In this document: piece after piece, positions 20,030 through 20,731 of the stretch
How the letters are laid out: each line of letters begins with the position of its first letter
Numbering within the stretch: position 1 is the first letter of the stretch
IMG/VR virus record: IMGVR_UViG_2541047722_000009
From: a virus
Lineage: Duplodnaviria > Heunggongvirae > Uroviricota > Caudoviricetes
Reading direction: 5' to 3' (one strand)
Length of the DNA stretch: 23,233 nucleotides
Notes under the pieces: model-generated
Database searches by the model: none
What the model was told of the DNA's origin: nothing
Seen by the model: only the letters and a program-made list of their open reading frames with translations
Made by a program: the position numbers and the translations under genes

Positions 20030-20440
20030 TTAGTGCGGAAATATTTGTGTAGTGTTCTGAATGTTCTCAGTAAAGAGTAATGAATTATCAAAGGTATAGT
20101 AATACCTTTTGTTTTCGTGGATATTTGTAATCCATCTGAAAACCCCTGCTGTAGCAAGATTTTTCCTGTATTCGTAAAATGATAACTCTCCTGATTTGAA
20201 TCCTTTTAAGGTGGCTTCTATAAGGCATTTATTTTTTGAAAATCTTACATTTACAACCTTACCCTGTCCTTTTATTAAAACCGTATTATCGTTTTCAAGA
20301 ACAAGATGAATATTCTCTGTGGCTAAATAGTAAATGTAATGTGAGACATTGTGACGTTTTAGTTCAGAATAAAACCAGTGATAGTTTAAATTATTTCGCA
20401 CTTTATCGAATATTTGTTTAAAAATGGCAATCTGAGCCAT
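20030..20440 (-). CDS. Hypothetical protein (136 aa) in AT-rich moron; candidate toxin/effector partner of the upstream RHH protein
   Basis: Start chosen at second Met (GAAGG RBS 7 nt upstream). Track ORF starts at 20455. AT-rich codon usage. No family recognised. Confidence 0.55.
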
Positions 20441-20497
20441 TGTAGTACCTTCCATGTGATATGAGGGGGGGTAGTCTGCACGATTATCTAAATTGCT

Positions 20498-20731
20498 TCA
20501 ATCTGGTCTGACCTGTTTTCTGAGCAATTCAGTAATGTCACTCTTTTCTTTGTTTGCTTCAGGCGAAACTCTTTTTTCTGAGCACAGTCTCCGGCGGCAG
20601 GCTTCAATGACCCAGGCTGAGAAATTCCCGGACCCTTTTTGAACAAGAGCGATGTTAATTTGTTCAATCATTTGGTTAGGAAAGCGGATGTTGCGGGTTG
20701 TTGTTCTGCGGGTTCTGTTCTTCGTTGACAT
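20498..20731 (-). CDS. Ribbon-helix-helix (Arc/MetJ-like) DNA-binding protein; candidate antitoxin/regulator
   Basis: 77-aa ORF. RNIRFPNQMIEQINIALVQKGSGNFSAWVIEACRRRL fits the RHH pattern (beta-strand, then helix-G-x-S/N-helix). Located 42 nt upstream of the 136-aa gene on the same strand. Confidence 0.6.
   Translation of the reverse strand: MSTKNRTRRTTTRNIRFPNQMIEQINIALVQKGSGNFSAWVIEACRRRLCSEKRVSPEANKEKSDITELLRKQVRPD

Follow-up and report, generated by a model that had tools for sequence, protein, structure and literature searches.

Two small genes between Rz and cos in a lambda-like prophage probably belong to two separately mobile accessory modules

Two small genes lie between the lysis gene Rz and the cos packaging site of a lambda-like prophage, and we consider it likely that each belongs to an accessory module of its own, the two modules at the prophage's right end being separately mobile and not a two-component system. 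The genes belong to the YlcI/YnfO family (DUF3950) and the YdfO/YbcV/lambda p78 family (DUF1398); they are present or absent as modules among related phages, have diverged from their relatives independently of one another and evolve under purifying selection, and the DUF1398 gene carries a conserved leader. We propose that the first module consists of cos and the first ~52 codons of the YlcI/YnfO gene, which would form a conserved backbone beside the packaging site and encode a small, very basic protein whose C-terminal tail is supplied by the neighboring module. The second module would be a self-contained cassette of a ~75-nt leader and the DUF1398 gene, transcribed leftward, antisense to the late operon, and probably from its own promoter. 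Both families are long catalogued and also occur in lambda and in the prophages of E. coli K-12, and the locus itself is already known: annotated prophages of many sequenced E. coli strains match it letter for letter, and as a discovery it therefore amounts to little. Our literature search found no function assigned to, and no phenotype reported for, either family, despite their presence in the best-studied phage and host. Our analysis narrows the options by pointing to independent modules, by giving DUF1398 a conserved, PdhR-associated leader of its own, and by tying DUF3950 to the cos backbone in phages that differ in packaging type.

Throughout, the window is the whole stretch of DNA that we analyzed (23,233 nucleotides; IMG/VR record IMGVR_UViG_2541047722_000009). 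A first-pass annotation made from its letters alone had described two co-oriented minus-strand genes 42 nt apart, lying in an AT-rich patch between Rz and cos at the position equivalent to that of bor. The ORF listing and the surrounding features agree with this layout:

19258–19722, plus strand: Rz-like gene, with an embedded Rz1 at 19478–19660
19853–20029, minus strand: spacer 3' of the DUF1398 gene, common to lambda and DLP12 (blastn segment map)
20030–20440, minus strand: DUF1398 gene in its RefSeq form, 136 aa, start at 20440
20030–20455, minus strand: the same downstream ORF in its first-ATG form, 141 aa
20498–20731, minus strand: 77-aa ORF (ORF listing), ynfO
20801–20833, no strand assigned: imperfect inverted repeat ATCAATTAATACG / CGTCATAATTGAT (repeat search), 70–100 nt upstream of ynfO
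20901–20907, plus strand: GGGTCCT, cosQ (read from the sequence)
20931–20942, plus strand: GGGCGGCGACCT, cohesive-end sequence (cosN; read from the sequence)

GGGCGGCGACCT and GGGTCCT are the cohesive-end and cosQ sequences of lambda. The phage 434 record, right end and annotated cosQ included, aligns to window position 20930; cos marks where the phage genome ends on the right and lies ~200 bp upstream of where ynfO starts, and the small terminase gene begins at 21118. GC content is 0.33–0.36 across 20000–20599, compared with ~0.50 in the flanks. The 42-nt gap holds only for the 141-aa ORF: a GGAAGG Shine-Dalgarno sequence at 20448–20453 lies 7 nt 5' of the 20440 start, the sequence upstream of the ATG at 20455 reads as containing none, and the 136-aa start leaves 57 nt between ynfO and the DUF1398 gene. 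The bor gene is cleanly absent from the window, and the ~108-bp spacer that precedes it in 434 is kept (19853–19961; the stretch of our spacer common to 434 is 19854–19961). A 1.5-kb query spanning 19700–21200 matches prophages of E. coli UTI89, S88, IHE3034, NU14, ATCC 11775 and others at 100% identity, and an Rfam search of the same interval returned no RNA family. The inverted repeat at 20801–20833, a candidate operator, hardly varies among lambda, 434, DLP12 and Qin.

The downstream protein had been described as lacking a recognizable family, which proves incorrect. It is a full-length DUF1398 protein, with residues 8–126 aligning to positions 1–119 of the 119-position PF07166 profile (E 3e-43, 147.1 bits against a gathering cutoff of 22), and it matches K-12 YdfO at E 4e-67 and shares the YdfO fold, known from a solution NMR structure determined by a structural-genomics center (PDB 2HH8). 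The protein is 16 kDa, with a pI of 9.4 and no evident signal peptide or transmembrane segment. The DUF1398 fold resembles no known toxin, being unlike RelE/ParE, MazF, PIN, HicA, Fic, GNAT and Zeta, nor any other solved structure, and the BFVD fold library gave no significant match. The downstream product falls in no known toxin family. PHROG 413 labels DUF1398 a 'head protein', and RefSeq phage records such as NC_001416 and NC_019711 label it a 'putative envelope protein'; we found no evidence for either label in a protein that has no signal or transmembrane segment and whose lambda homolog, lambdap78, was found non-essential with CRISPRi in lambda (PMC10695390).

The upstream product is a member of the YlcI/YnfO family (PF13132, DUF3950; E 2e-20, 72.8 bits against a cutoff of 25), also matches NCBIfam NF041551 (35.2 bits against a cutoff of 30), and is annotated in RefSeq as ynfO (WP_001331705.1). 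Its conserved basic domain spans residues 1 to ~52, with a pI of 11.5 compared to 10.9 for the whole protein. Residues 53–77 make up a junction-dependent tail that differs among the lambda/434/DLP12, BP-4795 and Qin/window types; in Qin and in the window, the final ynfO codons extend into the DUF1398 leader. When the two genes are paired with their Qin, DLP12, lambda, 434 and BP-4795 copies, dN/dS is 0.12–0.38 wherever divergence is measurable, with DUF3950 alone at 0.13–0.28 in informative pairs, and this signature of purifying selection indicates that both ORFs are genuine genes.

YnfO had also been described as carrying an Arc/MetJ-type ribbon-helix-helix signature. Like the Arc and Mnt repressors of phage P22, YnfO is small and has a basic N-terminal arm, an N-[IL]-R-[FW]-P pattern and two helices, all compatible with this fold. 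In an AF2 monomer model, residues 1–18 are disordered and helices span residues 19–32 and 34–52 (pLDDT ~84); the N-terminal beta-strand of a ribbon-helix-helix protein is not predicted, as expected for a monomer. When aligned by hhalign to Arc and Mnt (the sequences used are identical to PDB chains 1ARQ and 1MNT), RNIRFP falls opposite FNLRWP of Arc and Gly 33 opposite Arc Gly 30, which is the expected register but does not reach significance (P 0.099, probability 0.6%). No Pfam ribbon-helix-helix family matches three DUF3950 family members at E ≤ 10, a PDB profile search with YnfO came back empty, and Foldseek of the YnfO model gave no match at E < 1, with ParD2 and TCP-domain chains appearing only at E > 5. 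YnfO therefore differs from Arc and Mnt in lacking any significant profile, HMM or fold match to them, and its dimerization and DNA binding are putative. We regard its identity as a ribbon-helix-helix protein as plausible but unproven, and propose that nucleic acid is most likely bound by a ribbon-helix-helix-like dimer of YnfO.

The arrangement of the locus speaks to its modular nature. Blastn segments of the window mapped onto lambda, DLP12, 434 and Qin show that ybcW, DUF1398 and bor are each present or absent between conserved flanks, in the order cos with DUF3950 codons 1–55, then ybcW (optional), DUF1398 with its leader (optional), the spacer, bor (optional) and Rz. This pattern among collinear relatives, together with a GC content of 0.33 compared with ~0.50, supports the earlier description of the segment as a moron. 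A close comparison is K-12 Qin, in which ynfO and ydfO have the same order, strand and 57–60-nt spacing as in the window, the DNA from cos to the DUF1398 leader is 98–100% identical, YnfO is 98% identical over residues 1–55, the PdhR box is identical and the DUF1398 fold is the same. The DUF1398 coding region of Qin, however, is a different allele (75% amino acid identity): nucleotide identity of 98–100% from cos to ~20471 gives way to 58–95% through the DUF1398 gene, and the window–Qin dS is 0.014 for the DUF3950 gene but 0.67 for the DUF1398 gene. Because of this disparity in dS and the breakpoint near 20470, we conclude that the two genes have decoupled histories. Ten viral contigs show the same decoupling, with a YnfO at least 97% identical to that of the window and an adjoining DUF1398 only 74–75% identical to the window's. 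Qin also differs in being a defective remnant, while the window prophage retains its lysis and packaging genes.

At the right end of lambda and in DLP12, the gene order is ylcI, ybcW (lambdap79), ybcV (lambdap78) and bor. As in the window, these genomes contain homologous cos, DUF3950 (94.5% identity over 55 aa), DUF1398 (76% amino acid identity) and leader sequences, with the genes running leftward in the Rz–cos interval. Unlike the window, they carry a ~614-bp module with ybcW on the opposite strand, which places the DUF3950 and DUF1398 genes ~690 bp apart, as well as a bor module downstream, and the lambda-type YlcI is a 64-aa protein whose tail is unrelated to that of the window YnfO. In the lambda record itself (NC_001416/J02459) the conserved 64-codon ylcI homolog is unannotated, at 48139–48303 on the minus strand (3743–3937 in locus L002), ~200 bp from the right end; it is annotated in other lambda-like records. 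In the K-12-like genome of E. coli ECGI0523 (CP178306.1, 1615849–1624248; L039), one copy of the pair has both genes broken by stops and frameshifts, which may reflect either real decay or assembly error.

These comparisons bear on the suggestion in the first-pass annotation that the two genes form an addiction or defense module. As a type II toxin-antitoxin system, YnfO would be a ribbon-helix-helix antitoxin and autorepressor whose C-terminal tail neutralizes a novel DUF1398 toxin, and the antitoxin-first order on one strand, the small basic protein with its ribbon-helix-helix-like pattern, the inverted repeat upstream of ynfO and the constant presence of DUF3950 ahead of phage-borne DUF1398 would all fit such a system. 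Against it, the tail that would do the neutralizing is wholly different between the lambda and Qin types, yet their DUF1398 genes are similar (dN ~0.10), and the same ynfO allele adjoins DUF1398 alleles that are only ~75% identical to each other. Nor do the genes form a tight bicistronic operon, given the 57-nt gap, the separation by ~690 nt and an opposite-strand gene in lambda and DLP12, and the leader belonging to DUF1398. The orphan fold of DUF1398 is unlike that of the toxins compared above, and the NMR solution of YdfO implies production at the milligram scale, which argues against strong toxicity. Two apparent DUF3950–DUF1398 fusion proteins (P0010 and P0014) were rejected as evidence of linkage: the two genes are in frame, with one TGA and 19 sense codons between them (window 20441–20500), and the ynfO TGA had been read as Trp by code-4-style gene calling.

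The distribution of the two families likewise argues against an obligate pair. A tblastn search of 50,697 phage records found DUF1398 in 43 and DUF3950 in 155, and of the 5,426 complete E. coli genomes, 5,376 contain DUF1398-like DNA and 4,184 the DUF3950 domain, so that at least ~1190 of these genomes carry a DUF1398 homolog with no detectable DUF3950. Phage 434 has the order cosQ-DUF3950-bor-Rz, and the Stx phage BP-4795 the order HNH endonuclease-DUF3950-Rz, both without DUF1398; YlcI/YnfO genes have also been reported in capsid-forming satellites of Enterobacter. Conversely, ycgX is a solo chromosomal DUF1398 gene adjoining bluR. It belongs to the same family as the window gene (43% amino acid identity) and has a homologous ~75-nt leader, but it has no DUF3950 partner (none within more than 3 kb upstream), lies outside any prophage late region and is found across E. 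coli; a Raoultella/Klebsiella-type DUF1398 copy is likewise solo. Near relatives of the window do carry both genes (among informative viral contigs, 77/77 and 74/75), as expected from common descent. In the sole exception, a single viral contig (L165, 438–1454), an IS5-family transposase directly follows an intact ynfO, and the insertion stands in place of the DUF1398 gene and some of the lysis region. Wherever we inspected DUF1398 in a phage or prophage, a DUF3950 gene lies upstream on the same strand, and phage-borne DUF1398 may therefore depend on DUF3950 in one direction. Scans of viral contigs with two distant DUF1398 members gave no matches, and a word-indexed homolog search from a distant member found only 4 proteins.

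The first-pass annotation had named a lack of co-conservation across genomes as refuting the pair, and co-conservation fails in both directions, with DUF3950 occurring without DUF1398 in most of the phages that carry it and DUF1398 without DUF3950 in E. coli genomes. A search of PADLOC-DB 2.0 returned no match for the 77-aa protein and only a chance-level match to Csx23 (E 0.023) for the 136-aa protein. With decoupled histories, a separate leader, a fold that matches no known toxin, no PADLOC match and a lambda homolog dispensable for lytic growth, the idea of an addiction or defense module is left unsupported, and we consider a type II toxin-antitoxin system extremely unlikely. Homolog counts for both families are inflated by lambda-type copies in the nominal genomes of Brevibacillus, Pedobacter, Arcanobacterium, Cohnella and others, which lie on contigs of ~3.5 kb or ~48.5 kb (L011–L038 and many ENA contigs of ~3.5 kb). 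We take these to be contamination by nanopore lambda control DNA, which they match (the 3.6-kb DCS amplicon from the lambda right end).

The sequence upstream of DUF1398 also indicates that the gene travels as a unit of its own. Across the window, Qin ydfO, DLP12 ybcV, lambda p78 and the solo ycgX, an alignment of the 150 nt preceding the DUF1398 start reveals in all five contexts a conserved leader of ~75 nt that starts with (A)GGTCAGACCAGATTGAAG; in ycgX the palindromic element within it reads GGACAGACC. The window contains the following elements:

20441–20518, minus strand: conserved DUF1398 leader (five-paralog upstream alignment)
20483–20488, minus strand: GATAAT, an inferred candidate -10 element within the leader
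20501–20517, minus strand: PdhR-box-like element AAcaGGTcagACCAgaT, with the palindrome GGTCAGACC at 20505–20513

The homology of the DUF1398 module to lambda and DLP12 begins at 20514–20518, and the PdhR-box-like element overlaps the last ynfO codons, 61–77 nt upstream of the DUF1398 start. Genomic SELEX identified the PdhR box at K-12 ynfO>ydfO as AAcaGGTcagACCAgaT, identical to the window element, and the PdhR box between DLP12 ybcV and ybcW is the same element as its reverse complement; in a pdhR mutant, ybcV mRNA was down 10-fold (PMC7660256). In K-12, ydfO mRNA is strongly induced by ionic-liquid shock (PMC4077768). Since the leader accompanies the gene even where there is no DUF3950 gene, the DUF1398 cassette appears autonomous and host-regulated. 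By analogy with these K-12 paralogs, we propose that the gene has its own promoter under PdhR control in the window prophage, that the GGTCAGACC palindrome, to which the host's pyruvate sensor PdhR would bind, occupies the -35 region of this promoter, and that DUF1398 expression in the lysogen would come under host metabolic or stress control. When scanned for consensus promoters, the minus strand gave no sigma-70 site, and an intrinsic terminator after DUF1398 was rejected, as the hairpin directly after the stop does not exceed shuffled sequence in stability (z -0.18) and lacks a T tract. Because neither a minus-strand promoter match nor a convincing terminator was found, ynfO and the DUF1398 gene may be co-transcribed in the Qin/window arrangement.

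A palindrome upstream of each gene also raises the question of whether YnfO/YlcI is a phage transcription factor for the leftward genes downstream of it, be they DUF1398, ybcW/ybcV or bor. Going leftward from cos, the first gene is always DUF3950, with variable cargo downstream, its product combines a basic N-terminal arm with a two-helix core, and the palindromes are conserved; in a variant of this idea, YnfO might act in trans on ycgX, for example through GGTCAGACC or the 20801–20833 repeat. The palindrome in the DUF1398 leader is already explained by PdhR binding in vitro, however, DUF3950 of BP-4795 has no leftward cargo before Rz, and genomes with ycgX but without DUF3950 exist, and we thus consider this role for YnfO unlikely.

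What DUF1398 does for the prophage can be framed by comparison with morons of the bor and lom type. Like DUF1398, these are AT-rich, leftward genes of the late region that are present or absent among relatives and dispensable for lytic growth. The product of bor is an outer-membrane lipoprotein known to confer serum resistance; DUF1398 differs in having neither a signal sequence nor a known phenotype. By this analogy, the most plausible role of DUF1398, a soluble 16-kDa protein with an orphan fold and probably dispensable for lytic growth, is to influence the physiology of the lysogenic host, like that of bor in other phages, and not to kill the cell; we infer a role in lysogenic conversion.

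Alternatively, DUF1398, DUF3950 or both could be uncharacterized factors in phage-host conflict, acting in superinfection exclusion, defense or counter-defense. The accessory cluster next to cos does take part in such interplay: lambdap79 (ybcW) triggers the Vulcan NADase defense, and escaper phages delete ybcW by recombining with Qin (bioRxiv 10.64898/2026.09.04.749371), which yields a ybcW-less arrangement like that of the window. DUF1398 alleles are also markedly diverged, most strongly at codons 55–92. Yet dN/dS in this variable middle segment is 0.20–0.58 and does not rise above 1, leading us to reject positive selection there; moreover, ycgX is a stable chromosomal paralog, PADLOC gave no match, and the literature we found reports no phenotype. 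A conflict role is thus distinctly unlikely.

More broadly, DUF3950 and DUF1398 could be functionally linked, with the ribbon-helix-helix-like protein serving as a phage switch for an orphan-fold effector. We give this very little credence, but if true, the effector would be a new toxin or phage-conflict module or would couple the prophage to host pyruvate status via PdhR, and ycgX would be a domesticated copy freed from the need for its partner. Two separately mobile modules, as proposed above, remain our preferred explanation.

Several errors in annotation and in the literature on these families could mislead others. The genes ydfO (Qin) and yfdO (CPS-53) are confused in PMC4077768 and PMC9181523, as is evident from comparison with PMC3105296. 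We thus rejected a link between YdfO overexpression and resistance to oxidative stress, because the cited paper reports YfdO of CPS-53 and the phenotype belongs to that protein. The 'PydfO' reporter (PMC4077768) was also rejected as a test of the DUF1398 leader: the construct ends inside ynfO codon 36, and tests the region upstream of ynfO.

Elsewhere, the window contains several RNA features. An Rfam match to the sok antitoxin RNA (11103–11277, plus strand, 113 bits) indicates that the prophage carries a recognized hok/sok-type type I toxin-antitoxin locus away from the region studied here. DicF sRNA lies at 4537–4588 on the minus strand, and two copies of the STnc100 sRNA lie at 16123–16313 and 16591–16800 on the plus strand. 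Downstream of the Q-like antiterminator region, a plus-strand cluster of three tRNAs (15798–16047) comprises a tRNA with a CAT anticodon (Met by ARAGORN, Ile by RefSeq), Arg-TCG and Arg-TCT.
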